A stretch of 64,000 nt of DNA from an uncultured Bacillota bacterium (GTDB lineage: Bacteria > Bacillota > DTU084): positions 26,643 through 90,642 of the forward strand of contig CALASN010000164.1 of assembly GCA_937888735.1 (NCBI GenBank), written 5' to 3'. A program made the translations under genes and the position numbers. Positions 38,384 to 63,812 of the stretch are shown one piece after another (positions within the stretch are counted from its first letter, which is position 1; each line of letters begins with the position of its first letter). The notes beneath the pieces are model-generated. The model had not been told where the DNA came from, searched no databases, and saw only the letters and a list, made by a program, of their open reading frames with translations.

Positions 38384-39370
38384 ATGACGGAATTGACGGT
38401 AATCGTGAGCGGAATGAGACCGACGGGCCCACTGCAGCTTGGCAACTATCTTGGAGCTTTAGATAATTGGGTCAAGCTCCAAGCTGAGAATCAGTGTTTC
38501 TTTTTCGTGGCAGATTGGCATGCCCTGACCACAGGTTATGAAAATACCGACGATCTCAGGGAAAATACCAAGATGATGATTATAGACTGGCTCAGCGCGG
38601 GCATTGATCCGGAGCGAAGCGTAATCTTCCGGCAGTCAGATTTGAAGGAACACGCGGAGCTGCACCTGCTTTTTTCCATGATCACGCCCTTGGCGTGGCT
38701 GGAGCGCTGCCCTACGTACAAAGATCAGCTGCAGCAGCTTTCGGATCGCAACATCACCACTTACGGCTTTTTAGGTTATCCGAGCCTCATGGCTGCGGAT
38801 ATCCTGATGTACAAACCGCAGTTCGTGCCCGTAGGCGAAGATCAGCTGCCCCATTTGGAATTGGCCCGCGAGATCGCCAGACGCTTCAACTTCCTGTATG
38901 GTCCCGTTTTTCCCGAACCCCAGGCTAAGATGACTCGGGTCACGCTCTTGCCAGGTTTGGACGGACGAAAGATGAGCAAAAGCTACGGCAACACGATTTC
39001 CATGAGCGGAGACCCCGCTGAGATCAAGGAAAAAGTTGCCGTCATGATCACAGATCCAGCCCGGGCGCGGCGCAGCGATCCGGGAGATCCGGAAAAATGC
39101 ACGGTTTTCACTTTTCAGAAGATCTTTGCCCGCCCTGAGGAGCTGCCACCCATTGTGGAAGGCTGCAAGACCGCCGGCATCGGCTGCGTGGATTGCAAAA
39201 AGCAGCTGATGGCTAGAATGATCGACAGGCTGGCGCCCATCTATAGCCGCAGACAGGAATTGTTAGCGCAGCCTGATTTAGTTGAGGAAATTTTAGCCAA
39301 GGGCGCGGGAGAGGCCAGGAAAGTAGCCGGCAAAACCATGGCGCAAGTACGGGAAGCGATGAAGCTATAA
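38384..39370 (+). CDS. trpS: Tryptophan--tRNA ligase.
   Basis: Class I synthetase with a degenerate HIGH region (TGPLQLGNYLGAL) and a KMSKS motif. 328 aa. Confidence 0.9.
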   Translation: MTELTVIVSGMRPTGPLQLGNYLGALDNWVKLQAENQCFFFVADWHALTTGYENTDDLRENTKMMIIDWLSAGIDPERSVIFRQSDLKEHAELHLLFSMITPLAWLERCPTYKDQLQQLSDRNITTYGFLGYPSLMAADILMYKPQFVPVGEDQLPHLELAREIARRFNFLYGPVFPEPQAKMTRVTLLPGLDGRKMSKSYGNTISMSGDPAEIKEKVAVMITDPARARRSDPGDPEKCTVFTFQKIFARPEELPPIVEGCKTAGIGCVDCKKQLMARMIDRLAPIYSRRQELLAQPDLVEEILAKGAGEARKVAGKTMAQVREAMKL

Positions 39371-45486: not shown

Positions 45487-45675
45487 GTGGCTAACTTTCA
45501 GGACAAGCTTTTAAAATTAGTCTTTAGCTTGCTGCTTTTGCTGATCCTCGCGCAGGCCTTGCTCCTTTTTGATAAACCGAGGCGTTTTCTTTCCCGGGTC
45601 GATCGCCTGGAGGGAAAACCGTGGCGGAATCAGCTTGCGCCAGCCGCGACTGATGTGGTAAACTATAGGAAATAA
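45487..45675 (+). CDS. Possible 62-aa single-TM small protein. It could instead be an untranslated leader of the HutP-aro operon.
   Basis: GTG start right after the ytfP stop. It has a hydrophobic core LLKLVFSLLLLLILAQALLLF. No RBS is evident. Confidence 0.2.
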   Translation: MANFQDKLLKLVFSLLLLLILAQALLLFDKPRRFLSRVDRLEGKPWRNQLAPAATDVVNYRK

Positions 45676-45679
45676 TTGG

Positions 45680-46114
45680 GTGGTGGTATTAGTGTTGGCG
45701 CATGAAAGCAGAGCAGTGGCTAAAGCCGCATTGGGCATCGCATTGACTTTTACCCATGAAGAGGAAGCCAAGCTGAAAGAAATGCTGGCCAAAGCGGAGA
45801 TCCTGGCGGTGGGCGTAGACTATGGAGGAGAGTTTTCCACTTCCATAGGCAAGATTGTGGAGCGCGCAGTGGTGGCTGCCAAACGCGAGGGCGTGATCAG
45901 CTCCGCTCACGCGGAAGAAGGGGCAGTTGCCGGAGCCACCCATGAGGCTTTGATGCAGATTTCTTCCCGAGCCATGGGACTGAATGTGGGAGGCAAGATT
46001 GGCGTAGCGCGGCGAGGAGAGCACATCAGCGCCGCGATTTTCGTCAGCATCGGGCTGCTCCATTTGGACGATGTGGCCATTGGTCTGGGCCACAGGGCGC
46101 TGAACCTATGCTGA
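45680..46114 (+). CDS. HutP-family protein, a homolog of the Bacillus hut operon RNA-binding antiterminator.
   Basis: SAHAEEGAVAGATHEALMQIS...GEHISAAIFVSIGLLHLDDVAIGLGHRAL aligns with the B. subtilis HutP C-terminal half (SEGYRESHALYHATMEALHG...GDWIAVSLYGTIGAPIKGLEHETFGVGINHI). Confidence 0.65.
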   Translation: MVVLVLAHESRAVAKAALGIALTFTHEEEAKLKEMLAKAEILAVGVDYGGEFSTSIGKIVERAVVAAKREGVISSAHAEEGAVAGATHEALMQISSRAMGLNVGGKIGVARRGEHISAAIFVSIGLLHLDDVAIGLGHRALNLC

Positions 46115-46473
46115 GGCTATGGGGGATCAGAGGGGCCGTCACTCTGCCCGCAGATACCAAAGAGGAGATGCACAGAGCCGTCTTTGAGCTTGTGGGGCAG
46201 CTTGAACGCCGCAATAATCTGGAACAGCAGAATATTGTGAGCGCAATTTTCACCACCACCCCGGATTTAAACTGCGCGTTTCCTGCTACCTGCGCCCGAG
46301 AGGCAGGCTGGAGCGACGTGCCCATGCTCTGCATGCACGAGCTGGCGCCTGAAGGAAGCCTGCCTCTGTGCCTGCGGGTGCTGGTGCACGCTTATCTCCG
46401 GCAGGCGCCGACGCATGTGTATTTGCGCCGGGCCAAAGAATTGCGCCCGGATTTAGCCAGAGAGGAGAGCTGA
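46108..46473 (+). CDS. aroH: Chorismate mutase, AroH class.
   Basis: MLRLWGIRGAVTLPADTKEEM...TTTPDLNCAFPA closely parallels B. subtilis AroH (MMIRGIRGATTVERDTEEEI...SATPDLHAVFPA). Confidence 0.85.
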   Translation: MLRLWGIRGAVTLPADTKEEMHRAVFELVGQLERRNNLEQQNIVSAIFTTTPDLNCAFPATCAREAGWSDVPMLCMHELAPEGSLPLCLRVLVHAYLRQAPTHVYLRRAKELRPDLAREES

Positions 46474-46474
46474 G

Positions 46475-47557
46475 ATGAAATTCAGGGAAGAGTTGCTGAA
46501 CATTAAACCGTATGTGCCGGGAAAGCCAATTGAAGAGGTTAAACGGGAATTGGGGCTTTCTGATGTGATCAAACTGGCCTCCAATGAGAATCCCTTGGGG
46601 CCTTCGCCCTTAGGCGTGGCCGCAGCCGTGGAGGCGACGTCCAAGCTTAATTATTATCCTGACGGCGCTTGCTTTGAGTTGAAAGAGGAGCTGAGCAAAC
46701 GCCTGGAAGTGGATAGCTCGCAAGTGATTTTAGGCAATGGCTCCGACGAGATCATCAAGCTATTGGCGGAGACTTTTCTCTATCCAGGCGACGAGGTGAT
46801 CGTAGGCAAGCATACTTTCGGCGAATACGAGTTTGCTGCCAAGTTAATGGGCGGCAAGTTGATTGTAATTGAGCCTAAGGATTGGCGCGAGGATCTGGCG
46901 GCCATGAGCGACGCAGTTACCTCCCGCACGCGCCTGGTGTTCGTGGGCAATCCCAATAATCCTTTGGGAACCGCGGTAAAGCGCCGAGAGGTAGACGCGT
47001 TTTTGGCCAAGTTGCCTGAGGATGCTATTTTAGTTTTAGATGAGGCTTATCGCGAATATGTCACGGATCCGGATTATCCCGAGAGCATAGAGTATATCAA
47101 AGCGGGCAAAAACGTAGTGGCGCTGCGCACGTTCTCAAAAATTTACGGTCTTGCCGGCCTGCGGGTGGGCTATGGGATCGCCAAAGCCGAGCTCATCTCC
47201 GCCCTCAGCCGCGCCAGGGAGCCTTTTAATGTCAACTCTCTGGCCCAGGCCGCAGCCCGAGCCGCTCTTGCCGATAGCGGGCACATAGCGGAGAGCAAAC
47301 GGATAAACGAAGAAGGTAAGGCCTATTTATACCGGGAATTTGAACGTTTAGGTCTCGCTTATCTGCCCACGGAAGCCAATTTTATTCTGGTGCAGGTGGG
47401 CAGATCAAGCGCGGAAGTGTTCCGCAAACTCATGGCTCTTGGCGTGATCGTCCGTACAGGCGATATTTTTGGACTTCCGGACTTCATTCGCGTCAGCATA
47501 GGTTTGCCGGCGGAGAACAGAAGATTCATTTCAGCGCTCTGTGAGATTTTAAACTGA
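46475..47557 (+). CDS. hisC: Histidinol-phosphate aminotransferase (also acts as aromatic aminotransferase in Firmicutes).
   Basis: 360-aa class-II aminotransferase. Motifs LASNENPLGPSP and the FSKIYGLAGLRVGY lysine region. Confidence 0.85.
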   Translation: MKFREELLNIKPYVPGKPIEEVKRELGLSDVIKLASNENPLGPSPLGVAAAVEATSKLNYYPDGACFELKEELSKRLEVDSSQVILGNGSDEIIKLLAETFLYPGDEVIVGKHTFGEYEFAAKLMGGKLIVIEPKDWREDLAAMSDAVTSRTRLVFVGNPNNPLGTAVKRREVDAFLAKLPEDAILVLDEAYREYVTDPDYPESIEYIKAGKNVVALRTFSKIYGLAGLRVGYGIAKAELISALSRAREPFNVNSLAQAAARAALADSGHIAESKRINEEGKAYLYREFERLGLAYLPTEANFILVQVGRSSAEVFRKLMALGVIVRTGDIFGLPDFIRVSIGLPAENRRFISALCEILN

Positions 47558-47593
47558 GCAGGAAAGTAGAACGGTAGGACGGAGGGATTTATC

Positions 47594-48622
47594 ATGATTG
47601 TTGTGATGAAAGAAGGGGCAGGAAAGCAGGAAATCGCCAATGTAGTAGCGCGGCTTGAAGAGTATGGTTTCGCCATTCATCTTTCCCAGGGCGTAACCCG
47701 CACCATCATCGGTGCCATCGGAGATAAAAAGCCAGTCTACCTGCAGTCCATCGAGGCCATGAGCGGAGTAGAGAAATTGGTGCCCATCATGGAGCCTTAT
47801 AAACTCGTGAGCCGCAGCTTTCAAAAAGAAACCACTGTGGTAAAAGTGGGGACAGTCAAAATCGGCGGGCCGGAGATAGTGGTGATGGCCGGGCCCTGCG
47901 CCGTGGAAAACAAAGAGCAGCTTTTCGCCGCAGCCGGAGCTGTGAAAGCTTCCGGAGCCAGCATTCTCCGCGGCGGCGCGTTCAAACCCAGAACCTCGCC
48001 TTACTCTTTTCAAGGTTTGGAGGAAGAGGGACTGAAGATCCTCGCCGGCGCCCGGGAAGAGTTCGGTTTGCCTGTGGTGACGGAAGTGGTGGATCCCAAA
48101 GACGTGGAATTGGTCGCCCGGTATGCGGACATGCTGCAGGTTGGCGCCCGCAATATGCAAAATTTTTCCTTGCTGCGGGAGGTGGGGCGCAGCGGGCTGC
48201 CCGTGCTGCTGAAACGCGGCCTGGCCGCCACTGTGGAAGAATGGCTGATGGCTGCCGAATATATCCTCTCCGAGGGGAACAGGCAGGTTGTGCTCTGCGA
48301 GCGGGGAATCCGCACTTATGAGACTCAAACCCGCAACACCTTGGATCTGAGCGCCGTGCCGCTGGCAAAGGAGCTTGGCCACTTGCCCATCATCGTGGAT
48401 CCCAGTCACGCTTCAGGACGCTGGCGCCTGGTGCCGCCTCTGGCCAGGGCCGCCATCGCCGCAGGTGCGGACGGAATCATGGTGGAAGTGCATCCCAATC
48501 CCGAACAGGCTTTTTCCGACGGGCCGCAATCGCTCAAGCCTGAGAATTTTCAGGAATTAATGACGCAGCTTGCCGCGTTGTGCCCGGCGTTGGGCAGAAA
48601 GCTGGCCGGCTGTCATGGCTAA
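47594..48622 (+). CDS. aroF: 3-deoxy-7-phosphoheptulonate (DAHP) synthase, type I-beta, with an N-terminal ferredoxin-like regulatory domain.
   Basis: Regulatory domain MIVVMKEGAGKQEIANVVARLEEYGF is followed by IVVMAGPCAVENKEQL and the KPRTSPYSFQGL catalytic core. Confidence 0.85.
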   Translation: MIVVMKEGAGKQEIANVVARLEEYGFAIHLSQGVTRTIIGAIGDKKPVYLQSIEAMSGVEKLVPIMEPYKLVSRSFQKETTVVKVGTVKIGGPEIVVMAGPCAVENKEQLFAAAGAVKASGASILRGGAFKPRTSPYSFQGLEEEGLKILAGAREEFGLPVVTEVVDPKDVELVARYADMLQVGARNMQNFSLLREVGRSGLPVLLKRGLAATVEEWLMAAEYILSEGNRQVVLCERGIRTYETQTRNTLDLSAVPLAKELGHLPIIVDPSHASGRWRLVPPLARAAIAAGADGIMVEVHPNPEQAFSDGPQSLKPENFQELMTQLAALCPALGRKLAGCHG

Positions 48623-49697
48623 AACTTGTCTCATTGCGGGCGTTGGCCTCATCGGAGGCTCCTTTGGCCTTGCGCTGCGGCAGAGCGGCTGGGGAAGGGT
48701 TTTGGGCGCGGATTCCAGTCAGGAAGCTTTAGCCGAGGCTCTGCGCGTCGGGGCAATCGACGCGGCCGTCCGGCTGGAAGAAACGGCAGATGTGGAGTGC
48801 GCCATTGTGGCCACGCCGGTCTTGGAAGTGATCCCCACTTGCCAGAAGCTGTTTTCCATCTTGCCGCCGCAAGCCATTGTGCTGGATACGGCCAGCACCA
48901 AAGGGGCGATTGTGCAGAAAGCTCAGGAATTGTTTCCGGGACGCTTCATTGGGGGACATCCCATGGCGGGCTCCGAGCGGGGTGGCATTACCGCGGCGGA
49001 TCCCTATTTGTTTCAAAACGCTCCGTTTATCCTCACGCCTGGCTCGGACGTTTCTTCTCAAACCATAGCTTATGTCCAGCAGCTGGTAAGCAAGACCGGA
49101 GCGGTTCCCATTAGCCTTTCCGCCCAGCGGCACGATCAGATCGTGGGGATGGTCAGTCACCTGCCGCACTTGTGCGCAGTGGCGCTGCTGAACACCATTG
49201 CTGGCTTTGAAGATAAGGATCTAGCCTTGACGCTTGCGGCAGGTGGCTTTTGTGATCTCACCCGGGTAGCCAGCGGCAGCCCCAAGCTGTGGCGGGAGAT
49301 TTTGGGCAGCAATCGCTGGGTGGCAGCCTCCCTCGTCGGCCGGCTGCAAAAGTCTTTACAGGCTCTAAAAGAGCTTTTGGAACAGGGAGAACTCTCCGGA
49401 CTGGAAGCGCTCCTGGCTGACGCGCAAAAAACCCGCAGTTTGCTGCCTCTGCGCAGAAAGGGCCTCCTGGGCTCAAGTTTTCAGTTGGTATTGTCGCTGC
49501 CGGACGAACCCGGTTCTTTGGCTGCTGTCACCGGGCTTCTGGCGGAAAAAGAGATCAATATTCAGGATTTGGAGATCTTGCGGATTCGAGAAGGGGAAGG
49601 GGGAACTGTGAGAGTGAGCTTTCGCGATCAGAACGCCCAAGAGGCTGCCCGCGGTATTCTGGCGGCTGCCGGCTTTCAGCCTCTCCGCCAGGAATGA
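48615..49697 (+). CDS. tyrA: Prephenate dehydrogenase with a C-terminal ACT domain.
   Basis: ATG 48615 overlaps the aroF stop. Rossmann motif LIAGVGLIGGSFGLAL. C-terminal ACT domain (FQLVLSLPDEPGSLAAVTGLLAE). Confidence 0.85.
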   Translation: MAKTCLIAGVGLIGGSFGLALRQSGWGRVLGADSSQEALAEALRVGAIDAAVRLEETADVECAIVATPVLEVIPTCQKLFSILPPQAIVLDTASTKGAIVQKAQELFPGRFIGGHPMAGSERGGITAADPYLFQNAPFILTPGSDVSSQTIAYVQQLVSKTGAVPISLSAQRHDQIVGMVSHLPHLCAVALLNTIAGFEDKDLALTLAAGGFCDLTRVASGSPKLWREILGSNRWVAASLVGRLQKSLQALKELLEQGELSGLEALLADAQKTRSLLPLRRKGLLGSSFQLVLSLPDEPGSLAAVTGLLAEKEINIQDLEILRIREGEGGTVRVSFRDQNAQEAARGILAAAGFQPLRQE

Positions 49698-50995
49698 ACG
49701 CGCAAGTTACGCCAAGCCGGCCTTGGCGCTTTGAAGCCCACGTTCCCGCAGATAAATCAATTACGCACAGGGCCTTAATTTTAGGCGCCGTCAGCCAGGG
49801 ACAGACAGTGGTGAGGGGAGCTCTCCCCAGCCGCGATTGCCTGGCCACAGCTAAGATTCTCCGGCAATTGGGGATTGATCTCGACTGGAGAAGCGACAAT
49901 ACCGTGCTCGTGCGCGGAGGTAAACTTCAGGAGAGCGGAGACGTTTTGGATTGCCAAAACAGCGGCACCACCATGCGCCTTTTCAGCGGCCTACTGGCAG
50001 GACAGAGCTTCTTCAGCGTGCTCTCCGGCGACAACTCATTGCGCCAAAGGCCTATGGCGCGTGTGCTTCGGCCCTTGAAAGCCATGGGAGGACAGCTTTT
50101 CGGCAGGCGCGGCAATCAATATCCTCCCCTGGCCATCGTGGGCAGGCAGCTGGCTGGCATCTCCTACCAGCTCCCTGTGGCAAGCGCCCAGCTGAAAAGC
50201 GCGCTGCTTCTGGCCGGGCTATTTGCCAAAGGAAAAACCGTCGTCACGGAACCGATCCCCAGCAGGGATCACACAGAGCGGATGCTCAAGGATTTCGGCG
50301 CAGCCATCAGCAGAGAGGGGAAAAACATTGCCATAGAGGCAGCCGGCGCTCTTCGGGGCAGGGAGATTGCAGTGCCTGGAGATTTTTCTTCAGCAGCCTT
50401 TCTCATAGCCGGCGCTTTACTCATCCCAGGCTCTAGGATTCTCTTGCGCGATGTGGGCGTCAACCCCACAAGATCTGCCTTCCTGACGGTTCTGCAGCGG
50501 ATGGGAGCTAAAATCAGAGTCCAAAACCAACGCTCTTTCGGCTCCGAGGAGGTGGCAGATCTGGAGGTGGAAACAAGCGAACTGCGCGGCACGGAAGTGC
50601 GGGGGGAAAGCGTTCCCCTGTTCATAGACGAACTTCCGGTTTTAGCAGCAGTCGCCACAGCTGCCGCAGGCACCACCGCCATCCGGGATGCTGCCGAATT
50701 GCGGGTGAAAGAGTCTGATCGCATCGGAGCCATGGTCTTGGGGCTCAGGCGCTTGGGCGTCGAGACAGAAGAATTGCCCGATGGACTTGTGATTGAAGGC
50801 GGTAAGCCTTTGCACGGCGCCCAGGTTGATTCCTTCGGCGATCACAGGATCGCGATGGCCATGGCCGTGGCTGCGCAGCGGGCTGAAGGGGTTACCACTA
50901 TTCAAGATGCGGAATGCGTGGAGATTTCCTTTCCCAACTTTTGGCAGTTATTTGCCAATAAAAATGAAATAAAGCAGGAAAAGCTGAAATTATGA
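49694..50995 (+). CDS. aroA: 3-phosphoshikimate 1-carboxyvinyltransferase (EPSP synthase).
   Basis: 433 aa. Motifs PADKSITHRALILGA and LDCQNSGTTMRLFSG. The start overlaps the tyrA stop. Confidence 0.9.
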   Translation: MNAQVTPSRPWRFEAHVPADKSITHRALILGAVSQGQTVVRGALPSRDCLATAKILRQLGIDLDWRSDNTVLVRGGKLQESGDVLDCQNSGTTMRLFSGLLAGQSFFSVLSGDNSLRQRPMARVLRPLKAMGGQLFGRRGNQYPPLAIVGRQLAGISYQLPVASAQLKSALLLAGLFAKGKTVVTEPIPSRDHTERMLKDFGAAISREGKNIAIEAAGALRGREIAVPGDFSSAAFLIAGALLIPGSRILLRDVGVNPTRSAFLTVLQRMGAKIRVQNQRSFGSEEVADLEVETSELRGTEVRGESVPLFIDELPVLAAVATAAAGTTAIRDAAELRVKESDRIGAMVLGLRRLGVETEELPDGLVIEGGKPLHGAQVDSFGDHRIAMAMAVAAQRAEGVTTIQDAECVEISFPNFWQLFANKNEIKQEKLKL

Positions 50996-52391: not shown

Positions 52392-54527
52392 TTGTTGCGC
52401 GTCACGGTAGCTCAGCACGCAGGGTTCTGCTTTGGGGTAGAGCGGGCGATGAAGATGGCGATGGAGGAACTGGACGGTCATCCCCTGTACTGCCTTGGCC
52501 AATTGATACATAATCCTCAGATTGTGAAGTTGCTTGCTGATAAAGGGTTACAAGTAATCGAGAATCTGGAGGAAACCTCTGGCGGTACCTTAATCGTTCG
52601 TTCCCACGGTTTGTCGAAAGATGTGATCAGAGCGGCTGAGGATCGTGGCTTGCGAGTGGTAGACGCGACTTGTCCTTTTGTGAGCAGAGCGCAGAAACTG
52701 GCATCCCAGCTGGTTTCCCAAGGATATCAGGTGATTTTGGTAGGAGACCCTGATCATCCGGAGGTTTGCGCCATAGTTGGCTCAGCGGGCGGGGAGGTAA
52801 TAGTGGCAAGCTCTCCTGACATGCTGAGACAGCTGAAGGTGAAGCCTGTAGTTGGGCTTTTAGCACAAACAACTCAGGACTTAGCCAATTTCAAAGCCTG
52901 TGCCGACGTCTTAATAGACGAAGCGCGAGAGCTGCGAGTTTATAACACGATTTGTACAGCCACAGAAAAAAGAATGGCAGCCGCGGTTGAGTTGGCTGGG
53001 AAAGTTCAGCTGATGATCGTCATCGGCGGAAAGAACAGCGCCAATACAAAGCGGCTAGCCCAGGTTTGTCGAGCTGCGGGAGTGACCACATATCACATTG
53101 AAACCGAGGCCGAATTGAAGCCAGAATGGTTCACGGGTCTCAGTCAGGTTGGGGTTACAGCCGGAGCATCGACGCCCAAATGGATGATCGAGGGGGTAGT
53201 GAGGAAAATGATTGAAATTGACGAACAGAAAGATCAGCAGGAAACTGTTGCGGCTGAGCCTCAGCCGCAAGGTGAAGCCACCGATAAGGAGGTGGCTTCT
53301 GTCGGGGAGGCCCCTGCTGAAACAACCCAAACCCAGTCGGCGGAACCCGAGGAATCACACATGGAGTCTCAGGCCTTCCCTACAATCAATCAGGGTGACA
53401 TCATCAAAGGAAAGGTGATTCAGGTTACCGACAATGAGGCCATGGTGGACATCGGGTATAAATCCGAAGGGATAATCCATAAGGGCGAGCTGGCATACCG
53501 GCCTGTGGCATCGGCAGAAGAGCTGCTGAAAGTTGGCGACGAGATCGATGTGTACGTGGAGAAAGTAGACGACGGAGAAGGGAACCCTGTTTTATCCAAG
53601 CGCAAGGCTGACGCAGCTCGCTCTTGGGTAGTGCTGGAAGAAGCATACCACAAAAATGAAGCCATTGAGGCGCCGGTAATTGAGCGGGTTAAAGGCGGAT
53701 TGCTAGTGGATGTCGGCGTGCGCGGCTTCGTGCCGGCATCTCAGGTTGATCGCCGCTTTGTGGATAATCTGGAACAGTTTATCGGGCAGGTCTGGAAGTT
53801 GAAAATACTCGAGATGGATCGGGAACGGAATAATGTGGTGCTCTCCCACAAAGCCGTACTGGACGAGGAGTTTCAGTCCCACAAACAAGACGTCTACGAT
53901 TCCCTGAAGCCCGGCGAGATCGTAGACGGAGAGGTCAAAAGGCTTACGGACTTCGGCGCTTTCATAGATATCGGCGACGGTGTGGAAGGCCTTTTGCACG
54001 TCTCGGAGATGGCCTTCAGCCGCGTGAAACATCCTTCAGATGTGGTCTGCGAAGGCCAGAAGATTAAAGTGATGATTTTGGGAGTGGATAAAGAACGGGA
54101 GCGCATCTCCTTAGGCCTTAAACAGACCTTGCCGGATCCATGGGATCACGTTGCGGAAAAATATCCTGAAGGTTCGCTGGTTGAAGGCGAGGTAACCAGA
54201 CTGGTGGACTTTGGCGCTTTTGTGAAACTGGAAGACGGCGTGGAAGGGCTGGTGCATATTTCACAGTTGGCCAATCGTCATGTGGCAAAACCGGATGAAG
54301 TTGTGCACTCCGGAGAACGCGTAAAGGTCAAGGTGCTCTCGGTGGATCCTGAACGTCACCGCATCGGGTTGAGCGTCCGGGAAGCGGAACAGCCTGCGAA
54401 ACAACAGACCAAGCCTGAGAACCATAATCATGCAGACAGCGATTATCAGCAGTCTGCACCGGAGGTGACCTTAGGAGATCTGTTCGGGGATCTGTTTAAG
54501 GACCAGAAGGAAGACAAAGATAACTAA
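52392..54527 (+). CDS. ispH-rpsA: Bifunctional 4-hydroxy-3-methylbut-2-enyl diphosphate reductase (IspH/LytB) fused to ribosomal protein S1 (four S1 domains).
   Basis: The N-terminal ~280 aa are IspH (VAQHAGFCFGVERA, conserved Cys ligands). The C-terminal ~400 aa hold repeated S1 motifs (G.V....D.GAF...G..GL.H.S). Confidence 0.85.
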   Translation: MLRVTVAQHAGFCFGVERAMKMAMEELDGHPLYCLGQLIHNPQIVKLLADKGLQVIENLEETSGGTLIVRSHGLSKDVIRAAEDRGLRVVDATCPFVSRAQKLASQLVSQGYQVILVGDPDHPEVCAIVGSAGGEVIVASSPDMLRQLKVKPVVGLLAQTTQDLANFKACADVLIDEARELRVYNTICTATEKRMAAAVELAGKVQLMIVIGGKNSANTKRLAQVCRAAGVTTYHIETEAELKPEWFTGLSQVGVTAGASTPKWMIEGVVRKMIEIDEQKDQQETVAAEPQPQGEATDKEVASVGEAPAETTQTQSAEPEESHMESQAFPTINQGDIIKGKVIQVTDNEAMVDIGYKSEGIIHKGELAYRPVASAEELLKVGDEIDVYVEKVDDGEGNPVLSKRKADAARSWVVLEEAYHKNEAIEAPVIERVKGGLLVDVGVRGFVPASQVDRRFVDNLEQFIGQVWKLKILEMDRERNNVVLSHKAVLDEEFQSHKQDVYDSLKPGEIVDGEVKRLTDFGAFIDIGDGVEGLLHVSEMAFSRVKHPSDVVCEGQKIKVMILGVDKERERISLGLKQTLPDPWDHVAEKYPEGSLVEGEVTRLVDFGAFVKLEDGVEGLVHISQLANRHVAKPDEVVHSGERVKVKVLSVDPERHRIGLSVREAEQPAKQQTKPENHNHADSDYQQSAPEVTLGDLFGDLFKDQKEDKDN

Positions 54528-63644: not shown

Positions 63645-63812
63645 TTGGAAAACGGCTGTTTCTGCATGGCGCAAAGCGAAAAGTGCATGGATATTAATAA
63701 AGGCTACACCACTGACGGCTATACGGAGCAGAAAACCGGCTTTGTCAAAGAAGTTACGCAGTTGCCCATAGCGCAGTACCGCAGTACGGAAAGGACAAAT
63801 ATCAATGAGTGA
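63645..63812 (+). pseudogene. Truncated, internally deleted duplicate of the GrpB gene (a fragment covering GrpB residues ~85-104 fused to ~160-175).
   Basis: LENGCFCMAQSEKCMDINKGYT..DGYTEQKTGFVKEVTQ parallels LENGYLCMAKSEKRMDFNKGYT and DGYTEQKTSFVRKVTE of 62133..62708. The nucleotide identity is visible by eye. Confidence 0.45.

Follow-up and report, generated by a model that had tools for sequence, protein, structure and literature searches.

TRAP is a ring protein that is activated by an aromatic amino acid and binds (G/U)AG repeats in leader transcripts, leading to termination; on the Shine–Dalgarno (SD) or start regions of trpG, trpP and ycbK it blocks translation, and the genes under its control are aromatic ones, including the aro supraoperon region. 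HutP of Bacillus subtilis, activated by L-histidine and Mg2+, binds UAG-N4-UAG-N4-UAG (UAGNNNNUAGNNNNUAG) as single-stranded RNA, with three triplets on each trimeric face of the hexamer and specific recognition of the A and the G (PMC2425495). In the literature, including a 2025 review of antiterminators that bind RNA (PMC12591593), HutP figures solely as the regulator of histidine-utilisation (hut) operons in Bacillus. Here we analyse a HutP-like gene in a 64,000-nucleotide stretch of DNA from an uncultured Bacillota bacterium (contig CALASN010000164.1, positions 26,643 to 90,642; hereafter the window), where it directly precedes genes of aromatic amino acid biosynthesis, together with an octamer repeat element on the SD sequence of aroF that is the candidate binding site of its product. 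We put the probability at about 0.65 that this stand-alone protein, once activated by an effector, binds RNA and represses aromatic biosynthesis; it would descend from HutP yet follow the logic of TRAP.

The longest open reading frame (ORF) at the locus (45680..46114, forward strand, 144 amino acids) matches the Pfam HutP family PF09021 over profile positions 1-128 of 128 (E value 6.7e-44; 149.7 bits, the gathering score being 25); B. subtilis HutP, in the sequence identical to 1VEA_A, reaches 111.3 bits with the same model, and no NCBIfam model gives the ORF a name. Since its homologues are 138-140 residues long, cover ~92% of this ORF and align from about residue 12, GTG at 45692 is the probable start, giving a hutP-like gene at 45692..46114 (forward strand, 140 amino acids) with an SD-like GGTGGTGG immediately 5′ of the start. 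The AlphaFold2 model of the single chain (predicted local distance difference test, pLDDT, 92.2; predicted template-modelling score, pTM, 0.87) has the element order H-H-E-H-H-H-E-E-E, with the helices packed on a four-stranded antiparallel sheet as in HutP. In a Foldseek search of the PDB, the ten best matches are all HutP chains, led by 1VEA, 1WPV and 1WMQ with template-modelling (TM) scores of 0.77-0.79, a root-mean-square deviation of 2.4 Å and 18-22% identity, and the matches that follow fall to a TM score of ~0.4; for this reason we regard the HutP fold of the predicted model as secure. Because searches of the PDB sequences with phmmer and with a subfamily profile missed HutP even when E values of 1-10 were admitted, recognising the kinship of the clostridial proteins with HutP took Pfam, fold comparison and a profile–profile alignment (hhalign) of 64 clostridial with 23 Bacillus sequences, which gave an E value of 3.3e-5 over 117 columns. 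The earlier note, made from the letters of the window alone, had named this ORF a HutP-family homologue; that identification holds.

The clostridial branch to which the protein belongs is about seven times larger than the Bacillus branch of PF09021, with 5423 clusters at 90% identity (212 representatives at 50%) versus 768. Its genomic context was surveyed in one genome per species, giving 80 loci with flanks of 6 kb, in which neighbours were identified by tblastn with the window proteins. An AroH homologue stands directly after the hutP-like gene in 70 of these 80 loci; the sample takes in Syntrophomonas, Moorella relatives, Desulfitobacterium, Desulfosporosinus, Pelotomaculum, Limnochordia, Clostridiaceae and Caldicoprobacterales. 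The earlier note had considered the hutP–aroH context unusual and had allowed that relatives might carry the gene unlinked to aro genes; in the clostridial subfamily, which dominates the family, it is instead what one normally finds. In ten loci no aroH adjoins the gene, one of these loci being truncated by the end of its contig, and several others continue from hutP–aroH at once into cmk-plsC-ispH/S1 with no other aro gene. Linkage to hutH/U/I/G, which goes with Bacillus-type HutP, was not found, the neighbours in the 80 genomes being aroH, other aro genes and cmk; in the window, too, none of the ORFs scanned between ~30 and 64 kb (18 of at least 180 amino acids and six shorter ones) encodes a hut enzyme, in agreement with the earlier note.

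The gap between hutP and aroH has a median of ~24 nt and does not exceed 30 nt in the majority of loci; the two genes overlap in the window, in locus L016 and in its close relatives, which leaves no room for an intercistronic terminator of the Bacillus kind. In the window ATGCTGA is common to the hutP-like stop and the aroH start (ATG 46108), a 7-nt overlap by which the two genes would be translationally coupled. Domain fusions of HutP with AroH were sought and set aside, the longer family representatives proving to be chimeric fragments with unrelated domains. A fusion of another kind occurs in a Caldicoprobacterales locus (L076 6410-7420), in which the AroH after the hutP-like gene is joined in frame to cytidylate kinase (336 amino acids).

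Upstream of hutP-like genes in distant taxa we observe a -10-like box, a series of (C/U)AG triplets in G-rich surroundings (GGCAGGACGGCAGGACGGCAGG in L060, GUAGGACGGUAGGGUGGCAGG in L050) and an intrinsic terminator just before the ribosome-binding site. A loose regular expression, AG-N3-GG-N-AG-N3-GG, applied to all 806 kb, returned 47 sense matches in the 47 kb upstream of hutP, aroH and aroF, against 0.76 expected from the antisense density (13 on the whole antisense strand). These matches fall into three classes: those on the SD or start codon of aroF, those on the SD or start codon of aroH, and those in the terminator leaders of hutP or, in Syntrophomonadaceae, of aroF. A matrix was then derived from 32 sites in other genomes, no window sequence being included. 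Its unit is G-YAG-n-A-Y-GG, with a period of 8 nt and 2-4 tandem copies, the three-unit form being a 24-mer, a (GUAGAACG)3-type RNA; both the A at unit position 5 (84-93%) and the G before YAG (81%) emerged without having been imposed by the seed expression. With a threshold of 13 bits, 48 matches lie on the sense strand of the 806 kb and a single one on the antisense strand. When it was rebuilt with each locus left out in turn and a threshold of 12 bits or more was used, sites were present within 140 nt upstream of aroF in 15 of 35 cases, at hutP in 13 of 78 and at aroH in 8 of 69, together 36 of 182, as opposed to 1 of 171 for nine control gene classes of the same loci. The leaders of 12 element-carrying loci match no Rfam family. 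Strand specificity, positions within operons (hisC-aroF, hutP-aroH) and overlap with SD sequences or start codons all argue that the element acts at the RNA rather than the DNA level, as does the covarying helix of Syntrophomonadaceae aroF leaders described below.

In the window, the best match of this matrix on either strand of the 64 kb, 27.6 bits at 47565-47592 with an overlapping second register of 20.3 bits, falls on the aroF ribosome-binding site. None of 200 dinucleotide shuffles reaches this score (mean maximum 11.4, highest 23.2), and the next independent match in the window has 16.8 bits; that match, at 63772, precedes only a short truncated ORF and was judged to be chance. The candidate binding site of the HutP-like protein on the mRNA extends over 47559..47586 (forward strand; CAGgaaagTAGaacggTAGgacggAGGg) and reads CAG(47559-61)-gaaag-TAG(47567-69)-aacgg-TAG(47575-77)-gacg-GAG(47582-84). 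With TGA-g before it and gg-atttatc-ATG after it, it occupies the 36-nt spacer between hisC and aroF and includes the aroF SD sequence GGAGGG (47581-86), the aroF ATG being at 47594; AGNAYGGNAGNAYGG occurs once in the window where 0.00 occurrences are expected. Among five relatives whose HutP-like proteins are 77-85% identical, the site is the only conserved block of this spacer, the 5′ half of which has wholly diverged. There GTAG-n-ACGGTAGGA-y-GGAGG-r-ATT is invariant save at the degenerate positions of the unit, so that positions outside the SD sequence (TAG, A, GG) are kept as well. The RNA around the site is less structured than its shuffles (z +0.77), as expected for a single-stranded protein-binding site. 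A second cluster, within aroF at 47617-47635 (GGCAGgaaagCAGgaaat), was dropped, not being conserved in the relatives.

The earlier note had proposed a search for NAG-N4 repeats and for terminator or antiterminator structures. Of the Bacillus pattern, the full UAG-N4-UAG-N4-NAG form occurs at chance level in the window and nowhere near the hutP-like gene, and the pair of UAG-N4 clusters expected at a terminator between hutP and the next gene has as its counterpart a related but distinct element of 8-nt period at aroF, which that note had missed. The hisC-aroF arrangement is not isolated, since in ~25 other cases, too, aroF or aroH has repeats on its SD sequence or start codon and lacks a terminator. 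Elsewhere the repeats lie 70-180 nt upstream in terminator leaders, far from any SD sequence, and some hutP and aroF leader terminators carry further NAG triplets in or beside the stem. Constrained folding, as used for TRAP-style antiterminators, shows the repeats of L018, L027 and L042 pairing with the 5′ arm of the terminator; in these three loci, therefore, protein binding would favour termination.

Two features of these leaders were observed besides. The terminator stem of hutP leaders is nearly constant in distant taxa, GGCACYCC...GGRGUGCC, which would not be expected of a generic terminator, and its 5′ arm (GGCACYCC) is also complementary to the hutP SD region GGAGGUG; such stems lie ~40-120 nt upstream of the hutP-like start in 11 loci (L016, L018, L022, L037, L040, L049, L050, L065, L069, L077 and L078). 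In Syntrophomonadaceae aroF leaders, a conserved helix surrounds the terminator. In six loci (L014, L020, L029, L033, L036 and L042), ~100-110 nt upstream of a second aroF copy, GGUGGGAAUA, at the 3′ end of the repeats, is paired with UAUUCCCAUC beyond the terminator U-tract; the base pairs covary between loci, and the 3′ strand bears a CUCC anti-SD-like sequence.

The aroF site lies within a compact operon on the forward strand, in the order that the earlier note had given. The hutP-like gene is followed by aroH (46108..46473), encoding an AroH-type chorismate mutase (CM_1; PF07736, TIGR01796), by a hisC-type gene (46475..47557) for a histidinol-phosphate/aromatic aminotransferase (TIGR01141, 343 bits), and by aroF (47594..48622), encoding a DAHP synthase with an N-terminal ferredoxin-like regulatory (FXD) domain (PF00793 and PF18152; NF006421, 526 bits). 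Next come tyrA (48615..49697), encoding a prephenate dehydrogenase with an ACT domain (PF02153, PF20463, PF01842), and aroA (49694..50995), encoding an EPSP synthase (PF00275, TIGR01356), whose start overlaps the tyrA stop by 4 nt. The tyrA start at 48615 is probable, family alignments beginning at residue 16 of the long ORF from 48570, and overlaps the end of aroF.

The effector site was compared with that of Bacillus HutP, in which His73, His77 and His138 reportedly bind the metal, and Arg88, Arg98 and Glu81 are said to hold L-histidine. All of these residues are invariant in the 23 Bacillus-type sequences. In the profile–profile alignment, His73 corresponds to Gly77 of the HutP-like protein, His77 to Gly81, Arg88 to Ser92 (Pro in most homologues) and Arg98 to Leu97; Glu81 is retained as Glu85. 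The equivalence of His138 with His124 is our own reading of the C-termini, the alignment ending at Bacillus residue 131. The places of His73 and His77 are taken by invariant glycines of the clostridial motif EEGAVAGA, and the 8-residue GNPYESEA insertion of Bacillus HutP is missing. The clostridial branch has an invariant set of its own (D43, G45, E57-R58, R65-E66, H73, E76, K102, H111, H134-R135), with Gly-rich invariant motifs DYGGEF, EEGAVAGA and GLNVGGKIG, and this set, together with the replacement of His73, His77, Arg88 and Arg98, leads us to regard the effector site as remodelled. The Bacillus-type site for L-histidine and a divalent metal is not present as such; since the His/Mg-binding residues, whose conservation the earlier note had proposed to check, are mostly replaced, histidine held in the Bacillus manner would not be the effector of the HutP-like protein.

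From the HutP fold and family, the conserved hutP–aroH pairing and the conserved strand-specific repeats at aroF, aroH and hutP, we infer that the protein binds the repeats, together with its effector, its oligomeric form and whether it lowers or raises expression. If it resembles B. subtilis HutP in this respect, it may form a ring of subunits that each read a single NAG triplet in single-stranded RNA; the 2-4 repeats of a cluster would agree, if indirectly, with a three-fold HutP face. We envision that in this lineage hutP-aroH-hisC is expressed, apparently leaderless, from a promoter just upstream, and that the effector-charged protein would sit on 47559-47586 and block ribosome loading on aroF. 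Repression could then spread to tyrA and aroA by translational coupling, because tyrA overlaps the end of aroF and aroA the end of tyrA. The outcome would be end-product repression of aroF, the first committed enzyme. As effector, an end product is most plausible, with Tyr or Phe the natural guess for a protein aimed at DAHP synthase and chorismate mutase. Other lineages carry the repeats across the start codon of aroH, or else before hutP or aroF in a 5′ leader that continues into an intrinsic terminator. Because the sites overlap SD sequences and start codons, repression is suggested, and the word antiterminator probably names the wrong direction.

Control in the classical, positive sense of HutP is essentially what the earlier note had assumed. 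On that account the effector-bound protein would antiterminate or activate the aro genes from the NAG repeats, or else the apo-protein would bind and the end product release it, and the effector could be a pathway intermediate. The precedent of Bacillus HutP, an antiterminator, points this way (PMC2425495), as do the stable intrinsic terminators 3′ of the repeats in many hutP and aroF leaders, some with extra NAG triplets in or next to the stem. Constrained folding is also mixed, for in L022, L050, L078, L014 and L020 blocking the repeats makes no difference to formation of the terminator, as would be expected if default termination needed relief. Positive control fits poorly, however, with the window and the ~25 other cases in which, no terminator being present, repeats cover the SD sequence or start of aroF or aroH: a protein bound there should prevent initiation. 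The unstructured RNA at the window site offers no inhibitory structure to relieve, a terminator cannot fit between hutP and aroH, and a biosynthetic regulon is normally repressed by its end product. We consider positive control improbable. Control of aromatic amino-acid genes by a HutP-like RNA-binding protein, the general idea of the earlier note, finds strong comparative support; the antiterminator direction and a histidine effector of the Bacillus type do not.

A slightly less probable account separates the protein from the repeats: another factor would read them, and the HutP-like protein would be a stoichiometric partner or allosteric subunit of AroH, a pathway enzyme or a ligand buffer. 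The hutP–aroH pair is indeed the conserved core, often translationally coupled and kept even where no other aro gene is adjacent, AroH enzymes are trimers just as HutP is built from trimers, and the loss of the Bacillus ligand residues and the unusually high conservation, with its Gly-rich invariant motifs, would suit such a role. Against it, no natural HutP–AroH fusion was found, 10 of 80 loci retain the gene without an adjacent aroH (one at a contig end), the repeats resemble the known HutP RNA code (NAG, fixed spacing, three per cluster), and no other candidate regulator gene is linked. Less probable still is that the synteny is a historical accident within an old rluB ... cmk-plsC-ispH/rpsA housekeeping cluster and that the repeats are merely extended ribosome-binding or enhancer sequences of highly expressed aro genes. 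The whole neighbourhood is syntenic across Clostridia, and the last repeat unit doubles as the SD sequence, as this would have it; but control genes carry the element in only 1 of 171 cases (with a relaxed pattern, 6 of 172 against 24 of 104 for aroH and aroF), repeats lie in terminator leaders remote from any SD sequence, and the footprint conserves positions that an SD sequence does not need.

Several observations weigh against effector-activated repression by the HutP-like protein. All genome loci analysed were picked for carrying the hutP-like gene, and a strong site is present within the 6-kb flanks in only 30 of 80 loci; the window itself has no site at hutP or aroH. With two of three metal histidines and both ligand-holding arginines replaced, the activation chemistry, and strictly even RNA binding, is not to be assumed, and conservation as strong as this (~65% identity across classes, 28 invariant columns in 64 sequences) equally fits an enzyme or a fixed protein partner. 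Nor is the bare motif unique, as a metagenome search with GTAGNAYGGTAGGAYGG gave mostly tandem GGTAGGAC arrays in unrelated contigs; the octamer pattern is not diagnostic outside the aro/hutP context.

These arrays of GGTAGGAC or GGTAGGAT, with up to dozens of copies (L090, L139, L160, L131, L147, L158 and others), come mostly from soil contigs with no aro or hutP genes nearby and look like microsatellites that match the motif by accident. The few non-array matches include sites before aroF (L094, L143, L161) and hutP (L118). Non-array repeats with a hairpin were also seen 135-163 nt upstream of genes for DctP-type solute-binding proteins (of the TRAP transporter kind) in two independent contigs (L096, L152), and in L123 the element precedes a GHMP-kinase-like gene; these genes are possible further members of the regulon. 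In three Syntrophomonas genomes a weaker site of 15-16 bits, GAGaacagTAGaATGg, overlaps a gene start (L001 4492, L005 4749, L045 4670). In L001 the gene so overlapped is the one for the POR gamma subunit, part of a 2-oxoacid:ferredoxin oxidoreductase cluster that lies immediately 5′ of the hutP-like gene and is likewise a candidate for the regulon.

The region 5′ of the hutP-like gene, in which the earlier note had pointed to two UAG triplets, was rejected as an RNA leader: its folding does not differ from that of shuffles (z 0.07), it has no Rfam match and no matrix match above 8 bits, and it consists of a small ORF and a promoter-like block. The TAG-N4-TAG pair at 45518-45527 is present, and a full HutP site absent, as that note had said; such pairs number 9 in the window against 11.9 +/- 3.8 expected, however, which is chance, and this one falls inside the small ORF, which does not belong to the regulatory element. 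The latter (45487..45678, forward strand) adjoins the hutP-like gene and encodes 63 amino acids, one transmembrane helix followed by ...FLSRVDRLEGKPW...; it lies between an HI0933-like flavoprotein gene and the hutP-like gene, and tblastn finds homologues in the same position in at least 30 loci. A by-eye translation of L081 gives a homologous peptide, which suggests that the protein is conserved; the alignment of the small ORF with L081 has gaps of 2-3 nt. At this position in L207 a 59-residue gene has been called, and the long Syntrophomonas form matches DUF5359 weakly, below the cutoff (E 1.5e-4).

A promoter-like element, TTGCGC-18 nt-TGgTAAACT, can be read at 45635..45664 (forward strand). 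This predicted promoter would leave a 5′ untranslated region of only ~20 nt, and therefore no attenuator leader in this lineage. The block and the AGGAAATAATTGG that follows it are among the few stretches conserved between the window and its relatives L081 and L082; a consensus promoter and terminator scan of 44.0-52.5 kb gave nothing above shuffles and did not list it.

Across Clostridia the syntenic neighbourhood runs rluB, a 162-residue gene of unknown function, the HI0933-like flavoprotein gene, the small ORF, hutP, aroH, cmk, plsC and ispH-S1. In the window, cmk, plsC and a LytB-S1 fusion lie 3′ of aroA. The fusion is a single 711-residue ORF (52392-54527, forward strand) that joins LytB/IspH (PF02401) to four S1 RNA-binding domains, and homologous segments recur after cmk-plsC in many loci. 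A class I aminoacyl-tRNA synthetase gene of the W/Y type (328 amino acids, 38384-39367, forward strand) lies 6 kb upstream in a lysA-M50-scpA cluster. Rfam 15 finds no T-box or other element at gathering score in the whole 64-kb window.

If effector-activated repression is correct, it would give a function and a regulon to thousands of proteins annotated as "HutP family protein" and would explain how entry into the shikimate pathway is controlled in many anaerobic Firmicutes. The data indicate that the Bacillus proteins are a minority branch of HutP, most of the family preceding chorismate mutase in Clostridia with its own RNA element on DAHP synthase and chorismate mutase genes. The 140-residue protein and its ~28-nt RNA would form a defined pair that is directly testable in vitro, and the protein could serve the engineering of acetogens and syntrophs as a small repressor of translation that responds to a ligand. 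A full-text literature search, whose coverage leaves out subscription journals, returned nothing that links HutP-like proteins to aromatic genes. With somewhat less confidence than for the repressor itself, yet still favouring it, we suggest that the dominant, uncharacterised HutP branch, spread over thousands of clostridial and limnochordial lineages, is the missing regulator of the common and Phe/Tyr aromatic pathway in Clostridia: a ring RNA-binding protein with a new effector site and an 8-nt code at aroF, aroH and its own leader, repressing by SD occlusion and attenuation, and hence a second, independent evolutionary solution to the task of TRAP in Bacillus, on a HutP scaffold whose sign of regulation is inverted.

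Among known systems, CsrA/RsmA resembles the proposed regulator in using purine-rich motifs that overlap SD sequences. CsrA, however, needs GGA, whereas the base after YAG is free here (G 37-52%, with A, T and C also seen) and units such as TAGTATGG, TAGAACGG and TAGCATGG have no GGA; no csrA gene is linked. With GGA not conserved and any base at position 4, CsrA was rejected as the reader of the repeats. The likeness to TRAP (MtrB) is one of outline, an aromatic-activated ring on NAG repeats in the leaders and SD regions of aromatic genes. TRAP is, in contrast, an 11-mer beta-sandwich (PF02081), a fold unrelated to that of HutP, and it needs 9-11 repeats with 2-3 nt spacers where the sites here have 2-4 with 5-nt spacers; neither the protein nor its sites conform to TRAP, which was likewise rejected as the reader. 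The targets differ too, TRAP serving the Trp branch and the protein described here the common pathway and the Phe/Tyr branch, through DAHP synthase and chorismate mutase.

Closest of all is Bacillus HutP (1VEA, 1WPV, 1WMQ, 3BOY). The two share the Pfam family and the fold (TM 0.77-0.79), both are small stand-alone proteins, and Bacillus HutP is encoded by the first gene of the operon that it controls and reads NAG triplets at fixed spacing in single-stranded RNA, in clusters of about three, as we propose for the HutP-like protein. At only 18-22% identity, with the ligand residues replaced and the GNPYESEA insertion gone, the clostridial protein nevertheless goes with repeats of a different period (8 nt rather than 7) that carry an extra conserved A and GG, with biosynthetic aro genes rather than hut targets, and with ribosome-binding sites or 5′ leaders rather than an intercistronic terminator after hutP; and where Bacillus HutP activates, repression is likely here. 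If so, a single fold would have evolved, in a clean example, towards the opposite logic of regulation and another repeat period. What was already known is the fold family and the principle of triplet repeats; the novelty lies in the regulon, in the period of the repeats, in the remodelling of the effector site and probably also in the sign of control.

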